Shown here in pieces: positions 689 to 55,912 of a DNA stretch of 64,000 nucleotides (position 1 is its first letter; every line of letters starts with the position of its first letter). Where the stretch lies: assembly GCA_903934015.1 (NCBI GenBank), contig CAIZMI010000015.1, positions 424 to 64,423 of the forward strand, read 5' to 3'. Under the pieces are notes generated by a model. The model made no database searches, was not told the origin of the DNA, and saw nothing but the letters and a program-made list of their open reading frames with translations. Made by a program: the position numbers and the translations under genes. This stretch comes from an uncultured bacterium. GTDB lineage: Bacteria; Patescibacteriota; Andersenbacteria; UBA10190; CAIZMI01.

Positions 689-5264
<4,576 letters not shown>

Positions 5265-14584: not shown

Positions 14585-15589
14585 TTACCAAGATTTTACC
14601 AATTCAATCGCTTCTTCTTCATTTTCAATCCAGACAATGTTGGGTTCTTTCTTGAGCCAAGTTAATTGTCGTCTTGAGTATTGCCAGTTGGCATTGATAA
14701 CTTTTTGTCTTCCTGCTTCCAACGATTCTTCGCCACGCAGAAATGGAAAAAGTTCGCGGTAGGCGATTGCTTGAAGGCCCGGCGCCTGCTCGCCGTATTG
14801 TTTTATCAGGGTTCTTATTTCTTCTACGAGTCCTAATTCGAGTTGTTTGTCGACGCGCTGAGTGATGAGGTCGCGCAAATTTTCGGGTTGGCGATGGATG
14901 GCGATTTTGAGAATATTAAAATCAGGCGTTGGTGGTAATGCGGTCTCGTGTAGGGGAAATTCATGAATTGCCCCAGCGGACGCGGAACTCGGGAGATTGC
15001 TTCGGCTCGCCTGCGGGCGGCCTCGCAAAGACGACGCATAGTTTGCTATCTCTAAAGCTCGAATTACTCGTCTTGGATTTTTTAAATCAATACGCTCGGC
15101 CAATATCGGATCTTTTTGAAGTAAATCATTCGCCAGATTTTCCACTGGTTGTTTGTTTGCCCATTCTCTAAAAACAAAATCCGGCGGTACTGATGCAAAG
15201 TTCTTCTTCTCGGTAAGTGCGCGAATATAAAAACCCGTTCCACCGATTACAATCGGTAGGTGGTTGTTCTCATGAATTTTCGCGATCACTTTTGTTGCAT
15301 CGTTTACAAAATCCGCTGCCGAATATGGTTGGTTTGGTGTAATTGTATCGATAAGGTAGTGGGGCATTGAATTGTATTCAATCGGTTCAAGTGGCGAACT
15401 GGCAATTTTTCCCCGTGAAACAATTTTGTCCGTGCCAATATTCATGCCAAAATAAACCTGACGCGAGTCGGCAGAAATAATTTCTCCCTGGAATTGCTCG
15501 GCCAACACTAAAGACAATTGGGTCTTGCCTGATGCGGTTGGGCCCATGATTGTTAGGAGTGGTTTTGGGGCTGGTTGATATGTATTCAT
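14585..15589 (-). CDS. miaA: tRNA dimethylallyltransferase (i6A37 synthase), with a ~20-aa S/R/A-rich insertion encoded by a repeat-like segment
   Basis: P-loop MGPTASGKTQLS and SADSRQVYFGMNIGTDK. The segment SSLRGRPQASRSNLPSSASAG at 14993..15037 matches the GC-rich R1 repeat family. Confidence 0.85.
   Translation of the reverse strand: MNTYQPAPKPLLTIMGPTASGKTQLSLVLAEQFQGEIISADSRQVYFGMNIGTDKIVSRGKIASSPLEPIEYNSMPHYLIDTITPNQPYSAADFVNDATKVIAKIHENNHLPIVIGGTGFYIRALTEKKNFASVPPDFVFREWANKQPVENLANDLLQKDPILAERIDLKNPRRVIRALEIANYASSLRGRPQASRSNLPSSASAGAIHEFPLHETALPPTPDFNILKIAIHRQPENLRDLITQRVDKQLELGLVEEIRTLIKQYGEQAPGLQAIAYRELFPFLRGEESLEAGRQKVINANWQYSRRQLTWLKKEPNIVWIENEEEAIELVKSW
14993..15037 (-). repeat. 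Short-form copy of the cgtcgtctttgcgagg...gccgaagcaatctc repeat (R1), located in-frame inside the miaA coding sequence
   Basis: The reverse complement, gcgtcgtctttgcgaggccgcccgcaggcgagccgaagcaatctccc, matches the termini of R1 copies at 22491, 24276, 29552 and 35704. Confidence 0.55.
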
Positions 15590-22490: not shown

Positions 22491-22581
22491 CGTCGTCTTT
22501 GCGAGCCATTGACCATTCGTGAGAATGGGCAAGGCGTGGCAATCTCCAGTGTTGAAAGTTGAAGAGATTTCTTCGCCTCGC
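22491..22581. repeat. GC-rich repeat element R1 (long form, copy A)
   Basis: cgtcgtctttgcgagccattgaccattcgtgagaatgggcaaggcgtggcaatctc...gagatttcttcgcctcgc. It contains an internal inverted repeat (ggcaaggcgtggcaatctc / gagattgcttcgcctcgcc). Related copies lie at 24276, 29552, 14993 and 35704. Confidence 0.75.
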
Positions 22582-24275: not shown

Positions 24276-24381
24276 CGTTGTCTTTGCAAGCCATTGACCA
24301 TTCGTGAGTCCGCCAACTGGCGGAGGGCAAGGCGTGGCAATTTCCCGCGTCGTAATTTTGGTGAGATTGCTTCGCCTCGCC
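24276..24381. repeat. GC-rich repeat element R1 (long form, copy B, with an extra inner hairpin ccgccaactggcgg)
   Basis: gtctttgcaagccattgaccattcgtgag...gggcaaggcgtggcaatttcc...gagattgcttcgcctcgc. Confidence 0.75.
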
Positions 24382-29551: not shown

Positions 29552-29650
29552 CGTCGTCTTTGCAAGCCATCGACCATTCTTTAGAATGGGCGAGGCGTGG
29601 CAATCTCAAAAAAACAAGACGCGGGAGATTGTTTCGCCCACGCACCACAA
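29552..29650. repeat. GC-rich repeat element R1 (long form, copy C)
   Basis: cgtcgtctttgcaagccatcgaccattctttagaatgggcgaggcgtggcaatctc...gagattgtttcgcccacgc. Confidence 0.75.
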
Positions 29651-33124: not shown

Positions 33125-34468
33125 TTGTCTGCAATTTTTCTACCAATCCTTCTCATTATCGGCGCCTTAAGCGCGATTTTGATAGTGTTCGGAAGACATT
33201 TGCCGGATTTTGTTCGAAGTATTAAGGAACGTAAAGATAAAAAAGAATCTTTGGAACCAATAGATGAGTTGCCGGTTAATCCTCGTGTGCATCAGTTGGT
33301 GCAACCCCAAAAAAATAATTTGGGGGGAATTGCTTCAAAAGTAAATGCTATTTGGAAGTTTTTGTTAGTTAAAGCTGTTTTTGTTGTTAAGCATGTTTGG
33401 CCTGCCTTGAAATTGGCTGGGAGTTTATTGGTGAAGTTGTTTCATAGGGTGCCTCGGATAAAACCAAATCTGTCGGTTTTGAGTCGATTTAAAGATGTGA
33501 CTTCGGAAGAAGTTGATTATAGAAATATTGAAGAGTTTGTGGAGCCGGTTGCAACAACAGCCGATATGAAAAGCGTTCAACGAAATCCATTACGTTATCC
33601 GGAACCATTATCGAATGAATTGGTTGCTTTGACACAGCCAAAAAAGAAAACAGTCGATAAAATTAGGAAAGAAATTCCCAAGATAGTAGAAACTCAGGTG
33701 GAAGCGATTATTGAGGAGATTAATGCGGAGCAAACTAAAATGGTGCCTGAAAAAGCAGTTGATGGACCGGTTGTTGAAAAGCCGGCGTTTTCCGTGGGAA
33801 AAACAAAGGAAACACGCACTCGTAATCGTCGTCGAATTGTCGGCAAGATGGCGCCGAAGCCGACTCCACTGCAGGAATTGGAAAAAACAATTATGGCGGA
33901 AGAGTCTGAAGAAAAAGAGGTTTTCTCAGTAAATGAGGCGGGGGAGATTACTGCTCCAGAACTTTCAAGTCCAATTGAAGAAAAGAAAATTTCATTTATC
34001 GATCGTGAGGCCTATGCTTTAACGGACGCGACGCAAGAAATAAGTAATCAGATTTTAGAAGGTAAATATAATGTTGCAGAATCAGCGCTTATTGATATTT
34101 TAAGTAAAAATCCCCGTAATACTGAGGCCTATCGGTTGTTGGGTATCGTTTACCTGAAACGAAAGGATTTTGAACAAGCTCGTGAAGTTTTTGAAGAAGC
34201 ATTAAGACGTGATCCGGAACATGGCGGATTGCAGGGGCCATTAGGTTATTGTTATATGTCGGTTGGAGAATATGGCAAAGCGCTTTCTATGTATCAACAG
34301 GCGCTTAATATGGATGAAACTAATATCGAATACTTGGAACAGTTGTTGATAATTTCTTCGCGCATGGATCGTCGTCCGCTTGTTAACATGACGGCCAAGA
34401 AAATTCTTGCGTTAAACCCAAATCACGTCGAAGCAAAGAAATATCTCGCACGCGTGGCGGTGAGGTAG
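33125..34468 (+). CDS. Hypothetical membrane-anchored TPR-repeat protein (TTG start)
   Basis: SD ggagg 6 nt before the TTG. N-terminal TM, charged linker, C-terminal TPR repeats (AYRLLGIVYLKRKDFEQAREVFEEALRRDP...). Confidence 0.55.
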   Translation: MSAIFLPILLIIGALSAILIVFGRHLPDFVRSIKERKDKKESLEPIDELPVNPRVHQLVQPQKNNLGGIASKVNAIWKFLLVKAVFVVKHVWPALKLAGSLLVKLFHRVPRIKPNLSVLSRFKDVTSEEVDYRNIEEFVEPVATTADMKSVQRNPLRYPEPLSNELVALTQPKKKTVDKIRKEIPKIVETQVEAIIEEINAEQTKMVPEKAVDGPVVEKPAFSVGKTKETRTRNRRRIVGKMAPKPTPLQELEKTIMAEESEEKEVFSVNEAGEITAPELSSPIEEKKISFIDREAYALTDATQEISNQILEGKYNVAESALIDILSKNPRNTEAYRLLGIVYLKRKDFEQAREVFEEALRRDPEHGGLQGPLGYCYMSVGEYGKALSMYQQALNMDETNIEYLEQLLIISSRMDRRPLVNMTAKKILALNPNHVEAKKYLARVAVR

Positions 34469-34589
34469 GTCTTGGTGTGGATTGTTCGTTTCCCTCCTTT
34501 ATCAAAGGAGGGCGGGGGTGGATTTTGTCTTTTTAGTCTCTTTGACTAATATCTTAAAAACAGTAACTTTAAGGTAGTTGGATTACTAT

Positions 34590-34661
34590 GCCGACTTAGC
34601 TCAGCGGTAGAGCAATGCTTTTGTAAAGCAAAGGTCCCGAGTTCGAATCTCGGAGTCGGCT
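34590..34661 (+). tRNA. tRNA-Thr (anticodon UGU)
   Basis: Cloverleaf: acceptor gccgact/agtcggc, D-arm tagctcagcggtagagc, anticodon loop ttTGTaa, T-arm ccgagttcgaatctcgg. CCA is not encoded. Confidence 0.85.
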
Positions 34662-34905
34662 CTCGAGATAAGTTTCGCTTCGCGAAACAAAAAAGATGTA
34701 CACAAAACGACTCAACATCCCGTTGAGTCGTTTTGCACAATAATCGAAGAACTCCGAAATATTTGCGTTCGGATGCGCAAAGTTTCGGAGCCCTTCGGGT
34801 GATAACAGGGTTATTGCACAAGAGTTAAAGAACTCCGAAAGATTGCGACAAGAGACGCAAAATTTCGGAGCTACCTTTAGTGTTCGAAGCAAAACTAATT
34901 CAATA
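34662..34905 (+). repeat. tRNA 3'-trailer structured module (copy 1) plus a second tandem sub-module
   Basis: ctcgag-ataa-gtttcgcttcgcgaaac-aaaaaag-atgtacacaaaacgactcaacatcccgttgagtcgttttgcacaa-taatcgaagaactccgaaa[hairpin]tttcggagc. It is then repeated as ttattgcacaagagttaaagaactccgaaag...tttcggagc. Confidence 0.8.
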
Positions 34906-34907
34906 AG

Positions 34908-34989
34908 TGGGCAGGGAAGGATTCGAACCTTCGAAGGCTGAGCCAGCAGATTTACAGTCTGCCCCGGTTGACCACTTCGGTACCTGCCC
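34908..34989 (-). tRNA. tRNA-Tyr (anticodon GUA), class II with a long variable arm
   Basis: The reverse complement, GGGCAGGTACCGAAGTGGTCAAACGGGGCAGACTGTAAATCTGCTGGCTCAGCCTTCGAAGGTTCGAATCCTTCCCTGCCCA, is very similar to E. coli tRNA-Tyr. Confidence 0.9.
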
Positions 34990-35054
34990 AATGTGCTCAA
35001 TAATGCCAAAATTAACTGCTTTGTTCAAGTGCTTGGAATTAAGAAATAAACCGA

Positions 35055-35399
35055 CTACTTGGTCGGTTTGTCGGGCTTGGTAGTGGAGATTAGGAAAACT
35101 CCGTTATTGAAAGCCCCCTTCTCTTTCTCGATATGTTCTTTTTCAGTAATGATTGTTGACCACTGTATTCCCGCTTTTTCGGCTATGGCTTCCATTACTG
35201 CCAAAACGTCAGCAAGTTCCTGAGTGAGCTTGCTTGCCTTAGATCTTTCGACTTCGCGTGCTTCTTCAACCAACTTTGTTCTTAGGTGGCCAAGTATTTC
35301 ATTGGGTGGAATTACGCTTGTTTCTGATGTTATTCCAAGGTTGGAAAGATGGGCAGGAATACCATCTCTGACTAGTTTGCAGTAAACAACTTTTTTCAT
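35055..35399 (-). CDS. MazG-like / phosphoribosyl-ATP-pyrophosphohydrolase-like nucleoside triphosphate pyrophosphohydrolase (YvdC family)
   Basis: N-terminal YCKLVRDGIP and the central EELADVLAVMEAIA motif. Confidence 0.6.
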   Translation of the reverse strand: MKKVVYCKLVRDGIPAHLSNLGITSETSVIPPNEILGHLRTKLVEEAREVERSKASKLTQELADVLAVMEAIAEKAGIQWSTIITEKEHIEKEKGAFNNGVFLISTTKPDKPTK

Positions 35400-35489
35400 A
35401 AATGAACTCCTCTCTGTGATTCACAGTACAACAAACATATATAAATTAAAATACTTAGAAAATAATGTAATAATTTTTTGTTTGGCAAG

Positions 35490-35627
35490 TTATTGAAGGG
35501 CTCCGAAGATACGTGTCTGTTGACGCGTATTTTCGGAGTTCTTCGATTCTTGTGCAAAATGACCAAACGTCCTGTTTGGTCATTTTGTGTACATTTTATA
35601 GTTTCGCAGAGCGAAACAAATCTCGAG
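35490..35627 (-). repeat. tRNA 3'-trailer structured module (copy 2, minus orientation)
   Basis: The reverse complement reads ctcgag-attt-gtttcgctctgcgaaac-tataaa-atgtacacaaaatgaccaaacaggacgtttggtcattttgcacaa-gaatcgaagaactccgaaa[hairpin]cttcggagccc. The long hairpin has a different stem sequence but is fully compensated. Confidence 0.8.
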
Positions 35628-35699
35628 AGCCGGAGGTGGGAATCGGACCCACGACCTCTTCATTACCAATGAAGTGCTCTACCACTGAGCTACGCCGGC
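35628..35699 (-). tRNA. tRNA-Thr (anticodon GGU)
   Basis: The reverse complement is gccggcgtagctcagtggtagagcacttcattGGTaatgaagaggtcgtgggtccgattcccacctccggct. There is one C6-U67 mismatch in the acceptor stem. Confidence 0.8.
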
Positions 35700-35703
35700 T
35701 TAC

Positions 35704-35750
35704 AGATTGCTTCGGCACGCTTGCATGCGACCTCGCAAAGACGAACTTTG
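35704..35750. repeat. Short-form copy of GC-rich repeat R1, adjacent to the tRNA-Thr(GGU) 5' end
   Basis: gattgcttcggcacgcttgcatgcgacctcgcaaagacgaac. Confidence 0.55.
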
Positions 35751-35832
35751 CGTCAATCTATGTTCGCTAGCATGCCTGATTTTTTGCGAATCGTCTAGAA
35801 CCAAGCTTTTGGGTTATACTTGGATCATAAAC

Positions 35833-37428
35833 ATGCGCAGATTCTTTCTTGGGATTATTGGCGGAATAATTGTCGTGACGATTGCCTATTTTTATGGCGG
35901 GGATATTCTGCGTCAAATATCGCTTGGAGGAAAAAATGGGACGTTGAGTCCCACGGCCACACCGTTGGCGGATGAGACGCAATCGGTTAATCAAAACAAG
36001 ACGATTAAAACTACCGGCGTTAAAAAAACAAATGATGATATTTTATTGGCGAAATATGTTGTCTCCGAACGACCTAAAGAAGGAATTGAACAGTGGACTG
36101 ATTTGTATTTGTCTTCCGATGGTATTATTCGCACTATTACGCCACCCGATAATGTGGATCGGACGGTTAAGCCGGTAACGGATGGAACAAACATTTATTA
36201 TTTAATTGAAAATAAAAATATTCGGGAACAAGGAAGAAGTTTGGTTGGTGTAGGAATTGAAAATAATAAACAAACCTTGATTTCCGATTCAACACCGCTT
36301 GTTGAACCGCGTTCTGTTTTTTCCGCCAATGACGGTAAGACGATTGCTTTTTATTTGGATGGTACGCAAAAAAAAATGACCGAACTTTGGACATATTCCG
36401 CGGAAAAAGCGCGTAAGCGTGTTTCTGTGGAGAGATTGAACCAGAATACGCAAGGTCCTTTTTGGGATGCTAATGGTGGATTTTTATTGCGTGACGGAGA
36501 AAAAGTATTGAGAGGTTCGCCCAATAGAACAGGTGCCGATATTTTGCCGATAAAATTTGATTGGAAAAATATCTTACAGGGTAACTCGATGATTCCATCT
36601 CCCGGTGGGACACAAGTTATTTATGCGATAAGTGAAAAAGACGGAAAAAATGTCAAAACGGTTTTGCGTGTTTGGGATTTAAAATTAAATCAAGAAAAAG
36701 ATGTGGCGTCGTTTTTAACCGACAAGGTGGAAATCTTGGGGTGGAGCAATGGTGGGGCATTGGTTGTGAGAGAAGGGGAGGGTGATGTGAAAATTTGGAA
36801 CATTACCAAAGACGCGAAAGAAAGTTACAACCTCGAGGCAAACTCGCGTTCTGTAATCTTGGCCGGTGACGGATCAGAAATTTCTTATATTTTGCCCGGT
36901 GGAACAGGGGAGAGAATGGTTTCCAGGGTCGTAAAAACCGGTAAGGTTGTATCGCAAGAGATTTTGCCTGCCCTTAATGATGTTTCCATTACGGGGGTTT
37001 CCAGTCGGACGGATATCATCCAATTTTTGCGTCTTAATGTTGTTGTGGAGGGCTATTCTCAAGCTGCCGAATTCCCGCTTGCAAAAGAAGTGATTGTCGG
37101 TTATGTTATGGGGCATATCCGAGAGATTGCAGTGGCGGGAGAGGGAGAAACGGTTACCGCACAACGAGTTTGGTTTACGCATGTTCCTGGGGCAATTTAC
37201 GTCGATTACTTGGTGGGATCAACGCTTTGGCGCCGATTGATCCAAGTTGATGGAGTGGGCGGTCAGGCTTCAAAATATACGCTTATCGGCGTTTACGCGC
37301 CCGCTGCGGGGGAATGGGTGTTGGCCAAAGGACGAAACCTGGCTGACACAAAAACAACCGAGCTTTATGAATTTGATCCAGAGTCGGAAAAATGGCTCAA
37401 AAAAGATATAACGAATATTCAACCATAA
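35833..37428 (+). CDS. Hypothetical secreted protein (beta-propeller-like repeats)
   Basis: Start at MRRFFLGIIGGIIVVTIAYFYGG (signal anchor). Repetitive beta-rich body. No confident family. Confidence 0.55.
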   Translation: MRRFFLGIIGGIIVVTIAYFYGGDILRQISLGGKNGTLSPTATPLADETQSVNQNKTIKTTGVKKTNDDILLAKYVVSERPKEGIEQWTDLYLSSDGIIRTITPPDNVDRTVKPVTDGTNIYYLIENKNIREQGRSLVGVGIENNKQTLISDSTPLVEPRSVFSANDGKTIAFYLDGTQKKMTELWTYSAEKARKRVSVERLNQNTQGPFWDANGGFLLRDGEKVLRGSPNRTGADILPIKFDWKNILQGNSMIPSPGGTQVIYAISEKDGKNVKTVLRVWDLKLNQEKDVASFLTDKVEILGWSNGGALVVREGEGDVKIWNITKDAKESYNLEANSRSVILAGDGSEISYILPGGTGERMVSRVVKTGKVVSQEILPALNDVSITGVSSRTDIIQFLRLNVVVEGYSQAAEFPLAKEVIVGYVMGHIREIAVAGEGETVTAQRVWFTHVPGAIYVDYLVGSTLWRRLIQVDGVGGQASKYTLIGVYAPAAGEWVLAKGRNLADTKTTELYEFDPESEKWLKKDITNIQP

Positions 37429-37442
37429 TTTTTTAGAAAACC

Positions 37443-37604
37443 ATGGCAACAAGTGATTTCAAGAAAATCAATTGCACAACCTGCAAGCAACAGAACTATA
37501 TGCGTCGCAAACCAAACAAGAAAGGTGTACAGGCCGAGAAATTGGAAACTTCCAAATTCTGCAAACACTGTCGCGCACATACGACGCACAAGGAAACGAA
37601 ATAA
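37443..37604 (+). CDS. rpmG: 50S ribosomal protein L33
   Basis: MATSDFKKINCTTCKQQNYMRRKPNKKGVQAEKLETSKFCKHCRAHTTHKETK. It is 53 aa and so missing from the ORF track. A terminator follows. Confidence 0.85.
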   Translation: MATSDFKKINCTTCKQQNYMRRKPNKKGVQAEKLETSKFCKHCRAHTTHKETK

Positions 37605-37610
37605 TACATT

Positions 37611-37640
37611 AACACCTCGCATTCGCGGGGTGTTTTTGTT
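37611..37640 (+). terminator. Rho-independent terminator
   Basis: acacctcgcattcgcggggtgt followed by ttttgtttt. Confidence 0.65.
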
Positions 37641-37648
37641 TTACTTTT

Positions 37649-38305
37649 TTAAAAGCAGATACGCTGACTGATTTCTTCCCATGCTTTTTTCTGGACTGCT
37701 TCTTTTTGTTTCTTATCTAAGTTATCGTTAACGTGGTTCCACACATCGAGCCAAATGATGTTTTTATTGTTTTTAATTTTGCTCCAGTCGGATTGGATAT
37801 GAAACGTGGGGAATGGAATAATTTGTGTTTTTAGGTTGTCTGCTTCGATAATTTTTGATATTTCCGTAATGCTGTCATCAATAAAATAATCAAGTTCGTA
37901 TTCTAAGAGGCGAGGGGTTTTGTTTTCATGGTTATCCATTGACAGTGTGACGTTGGAAATTTCACTTAAATAATTATTTACAAATTCTTCGGTTATATCT
38001 TTTAGTGTATCTTTGCGAGCGGTGATTAGAAAAATATCCGCTTTTCTTGAAATTTTTAACAAAAAATCGCACGCGCCGGATACGGGTTTCTGGCTATGCT
38101 CACTTGTTGAGAGAAAACCCCGAAATGCCACTGCCATATCGACCGCCGTCTTTCCTGTAGACGCCGGCCATGAATGTGACCGTTTAAATTCGGGGTAATC
38201 AATATTCCACCCCAAAACTGTTTCGCAATAATTTAAGTAGGCGATATTGTCTGTATCTACTAGAACGCCGTCGATATCAACGCCGATTTTAAGTGGGGAA
38301 GTCAT
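37649..38305 (-). CDS. HAD-superfamily 5'(3')-deoxyribonucleotidase-like protein
   Basis: N-terminal IGVDIDGVLVD motif characteristic of the NT5C/YorS-like family. Confidence 0.5.
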   Translation of the reverse strand: MTSPLKIGVDIDGVLVDTDNIAYLNYCETVLGWNIDYPEFKRSHSWPASTGKTAVDMAVAFRGFLSTSEHSQKPVSGACDFLLKISRKADIFLITARKDTLKDITEEFVNNYLSEISNVTLSMDNHENKTPRLLEYELDYFIDDSITEISKIIEADNLKTQIIPFPTFHIQSDWSKIKNNKNIIWLDVWNHVNDNLDKKQKEAVQKKAWEEISQRICF

Positions 38306-38380
38306 AAGTTAATTTGGTGTTTATAGGTTATACTGTTATTGTAAAAATAGCGAAATTGGTATATAAAAACGGTTATCCTT

Positions 38381-38451
38381 GGGCGAGTCGGTTAATGGTA
38401 AACCACAGCTCTCCAAAAGCTGAACTGGGGGTTCGATTCCCTCCTCGCCTG
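38381..38451 (+). tRNA. tRNA-Trp (anticodon CCA)
   Basis: gggcgagtcggttaatggtaaaccacagctctCCAaaagctgaactgggggttcgattccctcctcgcctg. G1-U72 wobble, G73 discriminator. Confidence 0.75.
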
Positions 38452-38600
38452 CTCGAGATTTGTTTCGCCTAGCGAAACTATCAAATGTACACAAAACGAC
38501 TCAACATCCCGTTGAGTCGTTTTGCACAAGAATCGAAGAACTCCGAGATCTCGCGCGCCAGGAGGCGCGGAGTCTCGGAGCTACCAACCACTAATGTATC
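38452..38600 (+). repeat. tRNA 3'-trailer structured module (copy 3)
   Basis: ctcgag-attt-gtttcgcctagcgaaac-tatcaa-atgtacacaaaacgactcaacatcccgttgagtcgttttgcacaa-gaatcgaagaactccgagatctcgcgcgccaggaggcgcggagtctcggagc. Confidence 0.8.
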
Positions 38601-38812
38601 TGCTTGGCTCGCTTGAGGGAATCGAACGCCGGAGCCTTGTACGAGGCGCATTTGGCGCCGAGTACGGCGAGGCGGTGGCTAACCCGAGCTCGCGGAAGCG
38701 AGCGAGAGGTGAAGCCGATTCCAAAATAGTCCGTAAGCAGGAATACTTATCGCCGAGGAACGAAGCAACGTAGGGGGGGGCAATGGTGGGCGATTCTTGG
38801 TGAAATTGCGCA

Positions 38813-38847
38813 TTAAGGTCCGACCTATAAAGGTCGGACCTTAATCG
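38813..38847. repeat. Palindromic hairpin with a GTCCGACC core (copy 1 of 2)
   Basis: ttaaggtccgacctataaaggtcggaccttaa. A related copy at 59271..59304 (ttagggtccgacctttaaaaaggtcggaccctaa) has compensating arm changes. Confidence 0.65.
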
Positions 38848-38889
38848 TTAGTGGTTTTAATTTGTGTTAGAATGCATTTAACACACAAA

Positions 38890-40038
38890 ATGAATAAAAC
38901 ATTAAAAGCTTACGCGATTTATACGGGAGGGATGATCGGGGTGGGGATTTTCGGAATTCCTTATGCTCTCATGCGTTCGGGGGCTTGGCCGACACTGGTT
39001 ACCGGCGCGGTTGTGATTTGCATGACTTTCATGATTCATTTGTTTGCAGTGGAAGTGATTTTGATGGCCAAAGGAAAACGACAATTGCCCGGCTATATCG
39101 GTTTATATCTTGGAAAGACAGGAAAAGTGCTTGAAACTATTGCTTGCGTTGGCGGTTCCGTGGGGGCACTTTTAGCTTATTTGATTGTAGGTGGTTCGTT
39201 TTTAGTATTGTTTTTATCGCATTTCTTCGTAATCACTCCGATTACGGCAACATTGATATATTTTGTTTGCGCGTCTTCAATTGTGCTTTGGGGTAAGCAG
39301 GGACATCCGGTTGTGCATATGATTATCTATGGCCTGTTCGTGGTTGTATTGTTGGTGTTGATTTGGTTTTCTGTCAGTTTGTTTTCCCCTCAGAATATCC
39401 CGCTTATTGGCAATGGTTTATTGACTCCATTTCTTTTGCCATATGGTGTTTTACTCTTCGCCTTTTGGGGCGTGGCACTGACGCCGGAGTTGGTGGAATT
39501 GACGCAGGGTAATCGCAAGATAATTCGGAAAGCTTTGGTGTATGGTTTTGCGACCGCATTAATCAGTTACGTAATTTTTTCAATTTTGATTGTCGGGATT
39601 AGTGGCGTGAATACGACCGAGGACGCGATCGGCGGTCTGCGTAATTTTGGCGCGGTGGGACAAGTGGTGATTATGTTTGGCGCGTTATTTGGCGTGCTTA
39701 CCACTTTTTCTTCTTTTTTATCTGTGGGGAGAACCTTGAAGCGCACGATGATTTATGATTTTAAATTTTCCAATTTGGGTGCTTGGGCGATCGCGATGGG
39801 TTTGCCATTGTTGCTTTTTGTTGCCGGGGTAAACGGTTTTGTAAAAGTGTTGGGCGTGACGGGTGCGGTATTTCTTGGTTTGGAAGGAATTTTGGTTGTC
39901 TTGGCTTATTGGGTGGCAAATTTTGGTTCTTCAAAAAGGAGTAATGCTTTTGCCAGTCGAAAGTTGCTGTTTGTTTTTGGCGCATTGTTGACTGTCGGAG
40001 TGGTGGTGGAAATATTGCGAGTAATGAGGATATTTTGA
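38890..40038 (+). CDS. Amino acid permease (HAAAP/APC-type, aromatic amino acid/serine transporter-like)
   Basis: About 11 TM helices. N-terminal YTGGMIGVGIFGIPYAL motif typical of the Mtr/TnaB/TyrP family. Confidence 0.6.
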   Translation: MNKTLKAYAIYTGGMIGVGIFGIPYALMRSGAWPTLVTGAVVICMTFMIHLFAVEVILMAKGKRQLPGYIGLYLGKTGKVLETIACVGGSVGALLAYLIVGGSFLVLFLSHFFVITPITATLIYFVCASSIVLWGKQGHPVVHMIIYGLFVVVLLVLIWFSVSLFSPQNIPLIGNGLLTPFLLPYGVLLFAFWGVALTPELVELTQGNRKIIRKALVYGFATALISYVIFSILIVGISGVNTTEDAIGGLRNFGAVGQVVIMFGALFGVLTTFSSFLSVGRTLKRTMIYDFKFSNLGAWAIAMGLPLLLFVAGVNGFVKVLGVTGAVFLGLEGILVVLAYWVANFGSSKRSNAFASRKLLFVFGALLTVGVVVEILRVMRIF

Positions 40039-54704: not shown

Positions 54705-55670
54705 ATGGAGAAAAATGTTGAAATATTTCTGCCGTTTTTTAATTGGTTCAATATAAAATCGGAGATTCGACAAGAGGTTGTAAATGAATTTAAAAAAACT
54801 CTGGAGGGGTACGGAATGACTGATTTAAGGTCTTTTCATGGTGGTTACGCCGGTCAGGGTTTTTTGCTGTCACGTTTTTTCATGAACCCCGGTGATCCTC
54901 GAATTCTTAAGCAAAATATTCGAAATATGCAACGGGAAATTAATTTGTTGGGGGAGTTAAGAAAGGTTTTTAAGATTGAGCATCCGATCATTTACGTTTT
55001 GCATTGTGGGCGAAGAGAGAAGGGTATTGGAAGGGAAGAGTCAATTCAGGCGACTGTTTCTTCTATTAAGTCGGTAATGGGGGACGCGCTTACTGCTGGA
55101 GTGTGTATTTCACTTGAAAATACCTATTCACATCCGGGTGAAGAAGAAATTGGTACATTTTTTGGAAGTTTAAAAGACGTTCTATCGCAGATTGGCGTGG
55201 AGTGGATTGAGCGTGGTGTGCTTGGTTGTACGCTTGATCCAGCGCATGCCTTGCTGACTTATAGTGGCAATTATGATGCTCTGGAAAAGGATTTGGCGGA
55301 ACTGCTACCTTGGTTTGTGCATATTCATGTTAATCACCCGCGAACAGCAAGAAATAAGACCGGAGAGCTATTTTCGGAGTGGAGCTTGGGAGATGATAAT
55401 CACAATGCGCCGGTAAAAATTCCTAACAGAACACGGTATTGGTCTTTGCTTGGGAAAGTGATTGCCAATAGCAAAATTTCATCATGGCGCACGATTACCT
55501 ATGAAGTAAACTGGGCGGTTCCGATTTTGCGAGCGATCTTTGGCGGGAGTCCGTTGAATGAAGTAAGGGTTGGTTGGGAAGCATTAGAAAGGTTCTGTAA
55601 TCATCCCACGGAAAGGTTTGACGTGCCGGCAATCGAACGCTATATTGACGCGGAACTGGGGAAGAATTAG
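54705..55670 (+). CDS. Xylose-isomerase-like TIM-barrel / AP-endonuclease-family-2-like protein (start uncertain)
   Basis: The ORF-track start at 54486 lies inside the R10 element, so the internal Met (MEKNVEIF) is chosen. Motifs ISLENTYSHPGEE and LDPAHALL resemble the sugar-phosphate isomerase/epimerase fold. Confidence 0.4.
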   Translation: MEKNVEIFLPFFNWFNIKSEIRQEVVNEFKKTLEGYGMTDLRSFHGGYAGQGFLLSRFFMNPGDPRILKQNIRNMQREINLLGELRKVFKIEHPIIYVLHCGRREKGIGREESIQATVSSIKSVMGDALTAGVCISLENTYSHPGEEEIGTFFGSLKDVLSQIGVEWIERGVLGCTLDPAHALLTYSGNYDALEKDLAELLPWFVHIHVNHPRTARNKTGELFSEWSLGDDNHNAPVKIPNRTRYWSLLGKVIANSKISSWRTITYEVNWAVPILRAIFGGSPLNEVRVGWEALERFCNHPTERFDVPAIERYIDAELGKN

Positions 55671-55782
55671 GGCGCATAGCTCAGTGGTAGAGCGTTGCAT
55701 TCACATTGCAAAGGTCGAAGGTTCGCCCACGCACCATAAAGGTGCGGGGCGCCCAGTACCCAACGTGGTACTGGGCGATACC
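55670..55782 (+). pseudogene. Truncated tRNA-Val 5' fragment (nt 1-56) with a 52-nt two-hairpin insertion in the T-loop and no 3' acceptor strand
   Basis: 55670..55725 is identical to the first 56 nt of the tRNA-Val at 55825. It is followed by cccacgcaccataaaggtgcgggg and the perfect 11-bp hairpin cgcccagtacc-caacgt-ggtactgggcg, then atacc and an A-run. Confidence 0.7.
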
Positions 55783-55824: not shown

Positions 55825-55896
55825 GGGCGCATAGCTCAGTGGTAGAGCGTTGCATTCACATTGCAAAGGTCGAAGGTTCGATACCTTCTGCGCCCA
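55825..55896 (+). tRNA. tRNA-Val (anticodon CAC)
   Basis: gggcgcatagctcagtggtagagcgttgcattCACattgcaaaggtcgaaggttcgataccttctgcgccca. Perfect acceptor and T stems. Confidence 0.9.
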
Positions 55897-55912
55897 CTAA
55901 AAAATAATAACC

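Follow-up and report, generated by a model that had tools for sequence, protein, structure and literature searches.

tRNA genes and module copies in the window

The window, i.e. the whole stretch of 64,000 nucleotides that was analyzed, carries over part of its length a set of tRNA genes, three full and some partial copies of a structured module, and a separate T element. tRNA genes were placed by ARAGORN and Rfam (called bodies 34590-34661, 35628-35699 on the minus strand, and 38381-38451). Module copies were scored with the covariance model R1, and the stability of their folds by the z-score of the minimum free energy (MFE).

34590..34662, plus strand: tRNA-Thr(UGU); discriminator U34661, encoded C74 at 34662, CCA not encoded
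34663..34791, plus strand: module copy 1, after tRNA-Thr(UGU); 135.6 bits, E 6e-31; MFE z = -8.3. Parts: P0 5' strand 34663-34670; H1 34672-34688; H2 with basal UGU/ACA pairs 34697-34739; J2/3 (P0 3' strand) 34740-34751; H3 34752-34790; closing C 34791
34795..34876, plus strand: tandem half module; short H2', linker TTGCACAAGAGTTAAAGAAC and H3', lacking H1 and the P0 5' strand
34880..34906, minus strand: truncated B-type module start, after tRNA-Tyr and its C74; cTTATTGAATTAGTTTTGCttcgaac / cTTATTGAATTAGTTTTGC
34907..34989, minus strand: tRNA-Tyr(GUA); C74 at 34907
35500..35626, minus strand: module copy 2, after tRNA-Thr(GGU); 131 bits; z = -8.8
35627..35699, minus strand: tRNA-Thr(GGU); C74 at 35627
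38381..38452, plus strand: tRNA-Trp(CCA); discriminator G38451, C74 at 38452
38453..38581, plus strand: module copy 3, after tRNA-Trp; 142.6 bits, E 1e-32; z = -8.8. Parts: P0 5' strand 38453-38460; H1 38462-38478; H2 with basal pairs 38486-38528; J2/3 38529-38540; H3 38541-38580; closing C 38581
38600..38760, plus strand: T element, a tRNA-Trp-derived structured sequence; GAGGGAATCGAAC..GGTGGCTAAC..GAAGCCGATTCC..GGAATACTTATCGCCGAGG

The order of the parts in the window copies is tRNA, C, TCGAGAT..GTTTCGC-N3-GCGAAAC..ATGTACAC-[14-bp hairpin]-GCACAA(G/T)AATCGAAGAA-[hairpin CTCCGA..TCGGAG]-C. Two conserved blocks of the module occur four and three times in the window, against 0.00 occurrences expected from shuffles, and all three copies fold far more stably than shuffled sequences (z from -8.3 to -8.8). 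A preliminary description had reported the shared module after tRNA-Thr(UGU), tRNA-Thr(GGU) and tRNA-Trp, together with a compensated swap in its long hairpin. Both observations hold: in the alignment, copy 2 features the variant H2 stem caaaatgaccaaac/gtttggtcattttg in place of the stem caaaacgactcaac/gttgagtcgttttg found in the other window copies, and the module itself proved far more widespread (see below). The second tandem sub-module noticed behind copy 1 is likewise real, the half module being matched by the model at 34804-34871 with 37 bits. The module was said to be absent from tRNA-Tyr and tRNA-Val. This is correct for the tRNA-Val of the window, and wrong for tRNA-Tyr, which is followed by the truncated start at 34880-34906 (minus strand), identified as B-type by comparison with the complete copies L004:9717-9847, found after a tRNA-Thr(GGU), and L019:3242-3367, found after a tRNA-Tyr. 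The tRNA-Tyr remnant abuts the end of the convergent array that departs from tRNA-Thr(UGU). The T element lies between module copy 3 and a Trp/Tyr permease gene; it is distinct from the module, and linked with it in relatives.

Module copies in related genomes

The covariance-model search across relatives, proposed at the outset as a check, yielded 36 full copies in the window and related genomes. Twenty-four of these are located directly after the C74 of an annotated tRNA, in the same orientation. Fifteen different tRNA species are served, including Thr (three times), Trp, Tyr, Gly (twice), Lys (twice), Arg, Glu, Val, Leu and Phe. The tRNA-adjacent copies always have the orientation of the tRNA, and always start at position 75. 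The module had been thought to begin directly after the discriminator base. C74 is encoded, however, after 54 of 55 tRNAs of the clade, whether a module follows or not; the first C therefore belongs to the tRNA, and the module begins at position 75. The encoded part of these tRNAs ends at C74, C75-A76 being absent from the genes, and the module is restricted to this C74-only lineage of small-genome, CPR/Patescibacteria-type bacteria, none being found in the relatives L010, L030 and L031, which encode the full CCA. More copies sit behind a duplicated tRNA 3' end (L004, L019), the copy L028:124 is preceded by the 3' part of the tRNA of another locus, and in L022 a duplicated tRNA 3' end is followed by a module start. 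Three copies, in L021, L025 and L026, have no recognizable upstream tRNA.

Genomes host a dozen or more copies, differing in their stems, each at zero spacing from its own tRNA. At least 25 H2 alleles were counted among the 36 copies, and module identity is about the same within (0.63) and between genomes (0.61). Linkers are near-invariant across genomes, although the flanking protein is only 52% identical. The module family is old and diversified, and has not undergone a recent burst.

Searches of broader collections were negative. The linker pattern gave three chance matches inside coding sequences among GTDB species representatives, where the exact motif of the lineage is absent. In IMG/VR one pattern had no match, the other two chance matches that were rejected by the model, and no copy was found. 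Contig ends were considered as a stand-in for RNA ends and discarded, as their location in modules and tRNAs is due to the repeated nature of both, and the samples appear to be metagenome assemblies.

Fold and covariation

The module is about 129-130 nt long, and is made up of four helices (P0, H1, H2 and H3). P0 results from the pairing of trailer bases 2-9 with the linker AAUCGAAGA, a tandem G.A interrupting the helix, and closes a three-way junction around H1 and H2; H3 starts one base further on. In the preliminary description CTCGAG and gaatcgaagaac were listed as separate motifs, and the fact that they pair together as P0 was missed. A helix between the 5' end and J2/3 is recovered by unaided MFE folding.

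In the alignment of the 36 copies 96.9% of the cells are paired, and 30 of 39 pairs show compensatory changes. None of 500 shuffles equalled the observed pairing support, and slid controls dropped to 29–55% paired. Selection on structure, previously argued from the window alone, is strongly supported by these aligned copies from several genomes. P0 covaries as well: G6-C is replaced by A6-U in four copies and A7-U by G7-C in three, while the entire helix is swapped for UCAUUGAUU/AAUCAAUGA in B-type copies and for CAUUUAGA/UCUAAAUG in L028:2018. Three further pairings were discarded. An extra helix predicted by MFE, in which the linker's GAAG pairs with a CUUC of the 3' tail, is contradicted by B-type copies, which keep the tail without its partner, and is mismatched in two copies. 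Pairing of the 5' end with the 3' strand of H3 shows no covariation. As to an interaction of the linker GAAUCGAA with the T loop of the tRNA itself, the linker stays constant when the T loop differs, as it does in tRNA-Thr(UGU).

Some features are conserved on one strand only, namely the tandem G.A in P0 and the asymmetric internal loops; the purine-rich linker is likewise specific to the sense strand. Since a tandem G.A within the closing helix is meaningful on the sense strand alone, an element acting at the RNA level is favoured. Counting G-U wobbles is a common means of picking the transcribed strand of a structured RNA; here stems feature 25 G-U pairs and 20 A-C mismatches, and the count carries no strand signal. 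Besides the G.A pairs, invariant unpaired bases are found in the AUGUACA / C-ACA internal loop, and the variable segments of the module are all base-paired.

The fold is elaborate and conserved, and its invariant unpaired bases and G.A pairs would suit the binding of a protein. This might denote a free-standing small RNA, probably a component of a ribonucleoprotein, the upstream tRNA providing only the promoter and a signal for processing of the 5' end, which would be generated by tRNA 3' processing. A precedent is provided by the dicistronic tRNA-snoRNA genes of plants, whose transcripts are cut by RNase Z according to work cited in PMC12045711. The explanation is nevertheless unlikely. A dozen or more stem-variant copies per genome, each on its own tRNA, fit a cis role better; C/D and H/ACA boxes are absent; the module offers no variable single-stranded guide segment; and no associated protein gene was detected by Pfam among 30 of the about 66 ORFs of the window.

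Module-less tRNAs of the clade are followed by a long terminator-like hairpin, which begins directly after C74 and thus occupies the position of the module. This observation speaks for a cis-acting element. It might also suggest that the module is a transcription signal, either a factor-dependent or unusual terminator, or an insulator, or a terminator which stops antisense transcripts from reading into the tRNA. H2 and H3, with T-rich runs behind them, score as terminator-like on the antisense strand, and a U-run is found behind a conserved 3' extension in one sub-lineage. A signal of this kind is highly improbable nonetheless, since the scan called no sense-strand intrinsic terminator in any of the three window copies, only the antisense H2/H3 sites, GC-rich H2 variants lack U tracts, and termination would need far less than four helices over 130 nt together with invariant junction bases.

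Rearranged copies of the module

Tandem arrays, half modules and chimeras were all encountered, and the module clearly undergoes duplication and recombination at the DNA level. Array-internal copies lack the 5' strand of P0. The tRNA loci hosting modules vary in gene cargo (Fic, APH, NUDIX, LysE, PBECR3, rve), the orientation of the tRNA flips, and tRNA 3' ends are duplicated; these loci are recombination hot spots. The reiteration of the module at tRNA loci also explains why assemblies of these genomes break there.

Rearrangements of this kind, and hot spots with variable cargo, are what would be expected of selfish or structural repeat DNA devoid of RNA function, either REP/BOX-like or the arm of small integrative elements residing at tRNA 3' ends. 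The patchy presence of the module among close relatives (the tRNA-Trp of L019 features a terminator in its place) and the lack of an excess of G-U over A-C point in the same direction. Repeat DNA is yet an improbable explanation, as orientation and start at position 75 are fixed although the tRNAs share no target sequence, and module ends feature neither terminal inverted repeats nor target duplications. Compensatory pairing in the three hairpins and in P0, along with the many H2 alleles, denotes long-term selection rather than a recent burst, and conservation of the tandem G.A and of the asymmetric internal loops is limited to a single strand. The lack of copies in IMG/VR weighs on the same side. 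No transposase associated with the module was seen, and an origin from MITEs or insertion sequences was discarded: terminal inverted repeats and duplications are missing, the orientation is unique, and upstream tRNA ends have only C74 in common.

Initially the module had been envisaged as an element for processing or stability, as a small RNA, or as a mobile insertion at tRNA 3' ends. What is favoured here is a cis-acting trailer element at the RNA level; mobile DNA inserting at a defined sequence is unlikely, given that no target is common to the 15 tRNA species.

A probable role at the tRNA 3' end

[quoted passage not shown] The start at position 75 and the fold of P0 set a folded domain directly against the acceptor end. 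Judging from these sequence features, we tentatively prefer to view the module as an RNA-level, cis-acting structured 3'-trailer domain of CCA-less pre-tRNAs, which would be removed by endonucleolytic 3' processing. tRNA and module would be co-transcribed; an endonuclease of the RNase Z type would cut at their boundary, after N73 or C74, and the CCA-adding enzyme would then complete the tRNA. Each module would serve its own transcript: it might set or expose the site of cleavage, protect the 3' end of the precursor from nucleases, or do both. The invariant unpaired bases and the G.A pairs would probably be recognized by a protein. Copies would have spread by duplication and recombination, and this would explain tandem arrays, half modules and chimeras. 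Since some tRNAs of the same genomes have no module (tRNA-Val in the window, tRNA-Trp in L019), the module is not required for 3' processing. That structured RNA may adjoin the 3' end of tRNAs without CCA is known from theta ribozymes (PMC10879173).

Some observations run counter to a cis-acting trailer. Tandem and half copies devoid of the P0 5' strand look like DNA-level proliferation without obvious function, the G-U/A-C count carries no strand signal, and three copies have no upstream tRNA.

It is unlikely, though conceivable, that the module itself defines the tRNA 3' end, being either a new class of self-cleaving ribozyme or a folded handle which steers a nuclease to the bond adjacent to P0. 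Many CCA-less tRNAs would then be matured by means of an RNA device in the trailer, not by measuring from the tRNA body, and the tRNA-like T element could be an evolutionary relative of the module. The ribozyme would cut at its own 5' edge and free the tRNA 3' end. The exact junction with the tRNA 3' end in 24 copies would suit it, as would the position of P0, which begins beside the putative scissile bond, and the combination of invariant junction nucleotides with variable stems and loops, the usual look of small ribozymes. The associated tRNAs are moreover CCA-less, like 95.5% of those associated with theta ribozymes (PMC10879173). Self-cleavage is nonetheless doubtful. No Rfam ribozyme family matches the module even at E<=10, the topology is not HDV-like, as no strand after H1 is complementary to the 5' end, and the hammerhead core CUGANGA is absent. 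Array-internal copies, in addition, miss the 5' strand of P0, and tRNA-Val and tRNA-Tyr do without the full module in the same genome, where a protein pathway must therefore already exist.

To return to the trailer domain that we prefer, a sizeable share of the tRNA genes of this lineage carries a folded RNA set with single-nucleotide precision against the acceptor end. To our knowledge, tRNA 3'-end formation in small-genome CPR bacteria is essentially unstudied. The module is a covariation-supported candidate for a new RNA family, and a marker which splits the C74-only lineage from its CCA-encoding relatives. Should a protein bind to it, the module would point to a ribonucleoprotein not known so far.

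Comparison with known systems

Only tRNAs were matched by Rfam at the gathering threshold in the window and 9-10 loci, and by Rfam 15 at E<=10 in the region 34300-39300, where no ribozyme family was listed.

Intrinsic terminators found after tRNAs hold the same position as the module, the helix starting right after C74 in module-less tRNAs of the clade, or after CCA in the relatives. Unlike terminators, the module features four helices and invariant junction bases, and no U-run follows its hairpins on the sense strand.

REP/BIME and BOX repeats resemble the module in being multi-copy, in having hairpin sub-modules in variable tandem number, and in keeping their stems by compensatory changes. 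The module differs from them in being strictly bound to tRNA 3' ends, with a fixed orientation and a fixed nucleotide position, and in conserving non-Watson-Crick features.

Kink-turns consist of a Watson-Crick C helix, a 3-nt bulge, and tandem trans sugar-Hoogsteen G.A/A.G pairs opening the NC helix. The bulged strand of Kt-7 (H. marismortui 23S rRNA), C-GAA-GAA, is found identical within the module linker AAUC-GAA-GAA-C, and the 5' strand of the module provides G-A before the G that pairs with the linker C. The Kt-7 pattern, AUC-GAA-GAA-C opposite C-G-A-GAU, is present in 22 of the 36 copies, several variants having a 2-nt "bulge". Yet the strand of the module does not continue into the would-be NC helix, and variant copies (C2-G196 in L012:1203; a continuous 9-bp helix in the B-type), which fit an uninterrupted helix register, appear to speak for an ordinary helix carrying a tandem G.A and a bulge of a single base.

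TIGR arrays, which are associated with CPR bacteria (PMC12045711), are made of regular stem-loop/repeat units and lie beside a tas gene encoding a Nop domain; each unit has two unpaired spacers, with box C/D-like motifs on either side. The module is not such an array: its hairpins are almost fully paired and lack spacer loops, and no Nop/Tas gene was found among the 30 window proteins scanned. Dicistronic tRNA-snoRNA and tRNA-C/D sRNA genes of plants and some archaea, as far as the citation in PMC12045711 goes, similarly have an RNA directly behind a tRNA, its 5' end being made by tRNA 3' processing. The module, in contrast, is bacterial, multi-copy in each genome and at zero spacing from the tRNA, and has neither C (RUGAUGA) and D (CUGA) boxes nor guides. 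A box C/D sRNA was accordingly discarded, the module consensus lacking UGAUGA and all variable segments being paired.

Among ribozymes, a hammerhead fold was rejected on both topology and sequence. In the HDV-like fold the 5' strand of P1, at the 5' end, pairs after P3, and P1.1, P2 and P4 are also present. The module shares with HDV-like and theta ribozymes position only, 24 copies residing right after the C74 of CCA-less tRNAs; their fold was discarded, because the 5' end of the module pairs with the post-H2 linker around two complete hairpins, and has no complement after H1. [quoted passage not shown] Theta ribozymes are, however, nested double pseudoknots of ~50-60 nt with a catalytic C, the module a three-way junction plus hairpin of ~130 nt; the former reside in Caudoviricetes, the latter in the chromosomes of CPR-type bacteria. 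Should the module take part in processing, whether catalytic or not, theta ribozymes would gain their first counterpart from cells rather than phages, and its fold would be a new one for RNA.

Structure of the module

Five tRNAs of the window are called by both ARAGORN and Rfam, and three of them are directly followed by a structured sequence of about 130 nt (the module).

tRNA genes of the window followed by the module (each found by ARAGORN and Rfam)
34590-34661, +, tRNA-Thr(UGU), then the ~130-nt module
35628-35699, -, tRNA-Thr(GGU), then the ~130-nt module
38381-38451, +, tRNA-Trp, then the ~130-nt module

The sequence behind each of these tRNAs runs, 5' to 3', through C, UCGAGAU, H1 (a 7-bp hairpin, GUUUCGC-N3-GCGAAAC), AUGUACAC, H2 (a 14-bp hairpin), GCACAAGAAUCGAAGAA, H3 (a long hairpin, CUCCGA...UCGGAG) and C. 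The conserved blocks occur 3-4 times in the 64 kb (0.00 expected), and the fold of each window copy beats its own shuffles by 8 standard deviations. Behind tRNA-Thr(GGU) H2 has a compensated variant, and behind tRNA-Thr(UGU) there is an extra half module, both as stated in the preliminary description. CTCGAG and gaatcgaagaac, described there as separate motifs, are indeed present, but are partners in one helix, P0. The module had also been reported as absent from tRNA-Tyr; this is incorrect, a truncated variant-module start residing at 34880-34906 (-), recognised by comparison with complete copies of a variant module (B-type) in relatives.

In an alignment of 36 copies 96.9% of the cells are standard pairs, and 30 of the 39 pairs changed on both sides. 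None of 500 shuffles reaches any of five pairing measures, and pairing drops to 29-55% in a control with slid partners. In P0, G6-C is replaced by A6-U in four copies and A7-U by G7-C in three; the helix is swapped for UCAUUGAUU/AAUCAAUGA in B-type copies, and for CAUUUAGA/UCUAAAUG in one copy of another metagenome locus (L028:2018). A helix between 5' end and linker is recovered by unguided thermodynamic folding. H1 and H2 lie inside P0, forming a three-way junction, with H3 one base downstream; P0 of the common type includes a tandem G.A, and at the base of H2 ACA faces C in an asymmetric loop that is conserved.

Copies and distribution

The gene content of the window is of the CPR/Patescibacteria type (rpsB-tsf, RF1-PrmC, L31, L33, FtsW, GatB, ThrRS, MiaA, nusG-L11-L1), and the nearest named S2 proteins are those of 'Parcubacteria group bacterium Gr01-1014_38' (62%) and Candidatus Andersenbacteria (~55-57%). 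Syntenic metagenome loci were collected via homologues of the 531-aa membrane protein encoded between the tRNAs, graded from 89% to 30% identity. Modules are found behind the same and other tRNAs in L004 (89%), L019 (78%) and L007 (52%), and are missing in the more distant L006 (57%), L010 (46%), L030 and L031 (~32-34%). L029 (51%) hosts two half modules and a divergent B-type copy from which H2 is missing.

A gapped-pattern search yielded 17 additional metagenome loci, and a covariance model trained on 23 copies identifies 36 full-length copies in the window and its relatives (E<1e-8). An annotated tRNA is abutted by 24 copies, always in the orientation of the tRNA: Thr(UGU, GGU, CGU), Trp, Tyr, Gly(GCC, CCC), Lys(UUU, CUU), Arg(UCU), Glu(CUC), Val(UAC), Leu(GAG) or Phe(GAA). 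Three copies come second in a tandem array, four stand behind a duplicated tRNA 3' end or behind a chimera that is itself preceded by one, one (L028:124) has the 3' portion of a tRNA from another locus before it, one is at the edge of a contig, and three (L021, L025, L026) have no recognisable tRNA upstream. No copy matching the strict pattern was found among GTDB representatives, and no module copy in IMG/VR.

The family is old and diversified: it features at least 25 H2 alleles, identity is no higher within than between genomes, and the linkers are near-invariant across genomes that share 52% identity in the flanking protein. At the DNA level the module clearly undergoes duplication and recombination, giving arrays, half modules and chimeras, the last with a module start in place of another module's H3 5' strand. 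One sub-lineage (L012, L013, L007, L024, L027, L028) carries a conserved 3' extension, CCCUCAC-nAGCCCAACUGAGCU (30-40 nt after H3), followed by a U-run; the reverse complement of the extension (AGCUCAGUUGGGCU) is similar to tRNA D-arm/A-box sequence.

Start at position 75

In the window and loci L004-L031, 54 of 55 clade tRNAs have C directly after the discriminator, module or not; the exception resembles a one-base shift in the script's discriminator assignment. The module-bearing lineage encodes C74 alone, distant relatives (L010, L030, L031) the full CCA, and the module is restricted to CCA-less tRNAs. Because C74 is encoded with or without it, the module starts at position 75.

In tRNAs of the lineage that lack the module, a terminator-like hairpin, long and perfect, begins at this position (for example in tRNA-Trp of L019, L006 and L029, and tRNA-Tyr of L004 and L007); where the module is absent, a helix (terminator) tends to begin directly behind whatever is encoded of the 3' end. 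A rival explanation makes the module itself a transcription signal. No sense-strand terminator is called at the module. Opposite it lie terminator-like antisense sites, H2/H3 followed by T-rich runs (34699-34739, -; 35496-35543, +; 35551-35591, +), which might stop antisense transcription entering the tRNA genes.

Variable tRNA loci and the T element

The tRNA-Thr/Tyr/Thr/Trp neighbourhood is variable (window 34400-38900 vs L004 5400-15600; also L007 and L019). The cargo between the same tRNAs differs among relatives (LysE, PBECR3 nuclease, HTH_38, NUDIX, Fic, APH; an rve integrase in L007), and tRNA-Thr(UGU) and tRNA-Trp are flipped relative to flanking genes in some genomes. Varying cargo, flipped orientation and duplicated tRNA 3' ends mark these loci as recombination hot spots.

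A second structured family, the T element, has a window copy at 38600-38760.

T element copies in metagenome loci
L030: 3655-3804 (-), 5035-5184 (-), 8172-8321 (+)
L022: 2057-2206 (-)
L018: 4616-4765
L014: 1953-2092 (-)
L004: 14735-14884 (-), 8080-8268 (-)
L019: 2975-3115 (-), 6380-6500

The tRNA is followed by a terminator hairpin, then by a copy of its T-stem/T-loop split by a conserved insert of ~135 nt (GGAUUCGAAGGG, a long hairpin whose loop is CUGC, CCCGGGCUCCGAAGGAGC, a hairpin, GGGUGAGGAG). The element closes with copies of the 3' strands of T-stem and acceptor and of the discriminator, to which CCA is added in relatives that encode it. Compensatory changes occur in 31 of 44 predicted pairs (8 copies), and no Rfam family matches. 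The 130-nt module often lies behind the copied tRNA 3' end (a module start in L022), and GAAUCGAA and CUCCGA..GGAGC are common to both families. In the window and L019 a variant directly precedes the Trp/Tyr permease gene and may be its leader.

Other features of the window

A 958-aa ORF (43113-45989, -) matches PF11978, the shoulder domain of the major vault protein (E 3e-14), and also a vault repeat (PF17795), the latter with a score under the curated cut-off; it has no PDB sequence match, and is absent from the corresponding place, between the CAP-domain and NTP-transferase genes, in L004, L006, L007 and L010. The GyrB gene (1233-5264, +) is split by an intein, Intein_splicing and Hint domains lying between the gyrase B and Toprim domains. 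A truncated second tRNA-Val(CAC) (55670-55729; Rfam tRNA, 41 bits, 60 nt) resides 155 nt upstream of the intact tRNA-Val (55825-55897), 98% identical over 59 nt. Short intergenic repeats (CGTCTTTGCGAG..hairpin..GCAATCT; 14988-15034, 22491-22581, 24276-24380, 29552-29607, 35704-35744), one immediately 5' of tRNA-Thr(GGU), could be promoters, leaders or REP-like elements.

Function and known systems

The module is real: covariation supports it as an RNA structure family, so far uncatalogued, which in one CPR lineage is tied to the 3' ends of tRNAs, and its function there is putative. Orientation and position are fixed relative to the tRNA although the tRNAs share no sequence, favouring an RNA function, as do the G.A pairs and asymmetric loops, which only the sense strand conserves, and the age and linker conservation of the family. 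A selfish or structural DNA repeat is a rival reading: duplication and recombination at the DNA level count against an RNA function, as do the status of these tRNA loci as recombination hot spots and the lack of a G-U excess (25 G-U vs 20 A-C). Neither terminal inverted repeats nor target duplications are found at the module.

As an RNA, the module would be co-transcribed with the tRNA, an endonucleolytic cut of the RNase Z type would fall at their boundary, and the CCA-adding enzyme would complete the tRNA; at the acceptor end the folded domain would play a cis role, defining the site and/or giving protection. It is not indispensable, because the same genomes hold module-less tRNAs. A free small RNA driven by the tRNA is a rival to this cis-acting domain. 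Self-cleavage by a new fold is improbable.

No Rfam family matches the module at any threshold. An HDV-like fold is excluded by topology; no hammerhead core and no C/D boxes are found, and TIGR stem arrays are ruled out, the module being without unpaired guide-like segments. A kink-turn is a candidate reading of the module linker, which matches every base of C-GAA-GAA, the bulged strand of the Kt-7 kink-turn, but variant copies fit a plain helix better. The closest functional analogue is the theta ribozyme, which is confined to phages and lies within +/-1 nt of the tRNA 3' end; CCA is lacking from 95.5% of the tRNAs associated with it (PMC10879173). Structured RNA in tRNA trailers is known already, and the module is a new variant of such RNA.
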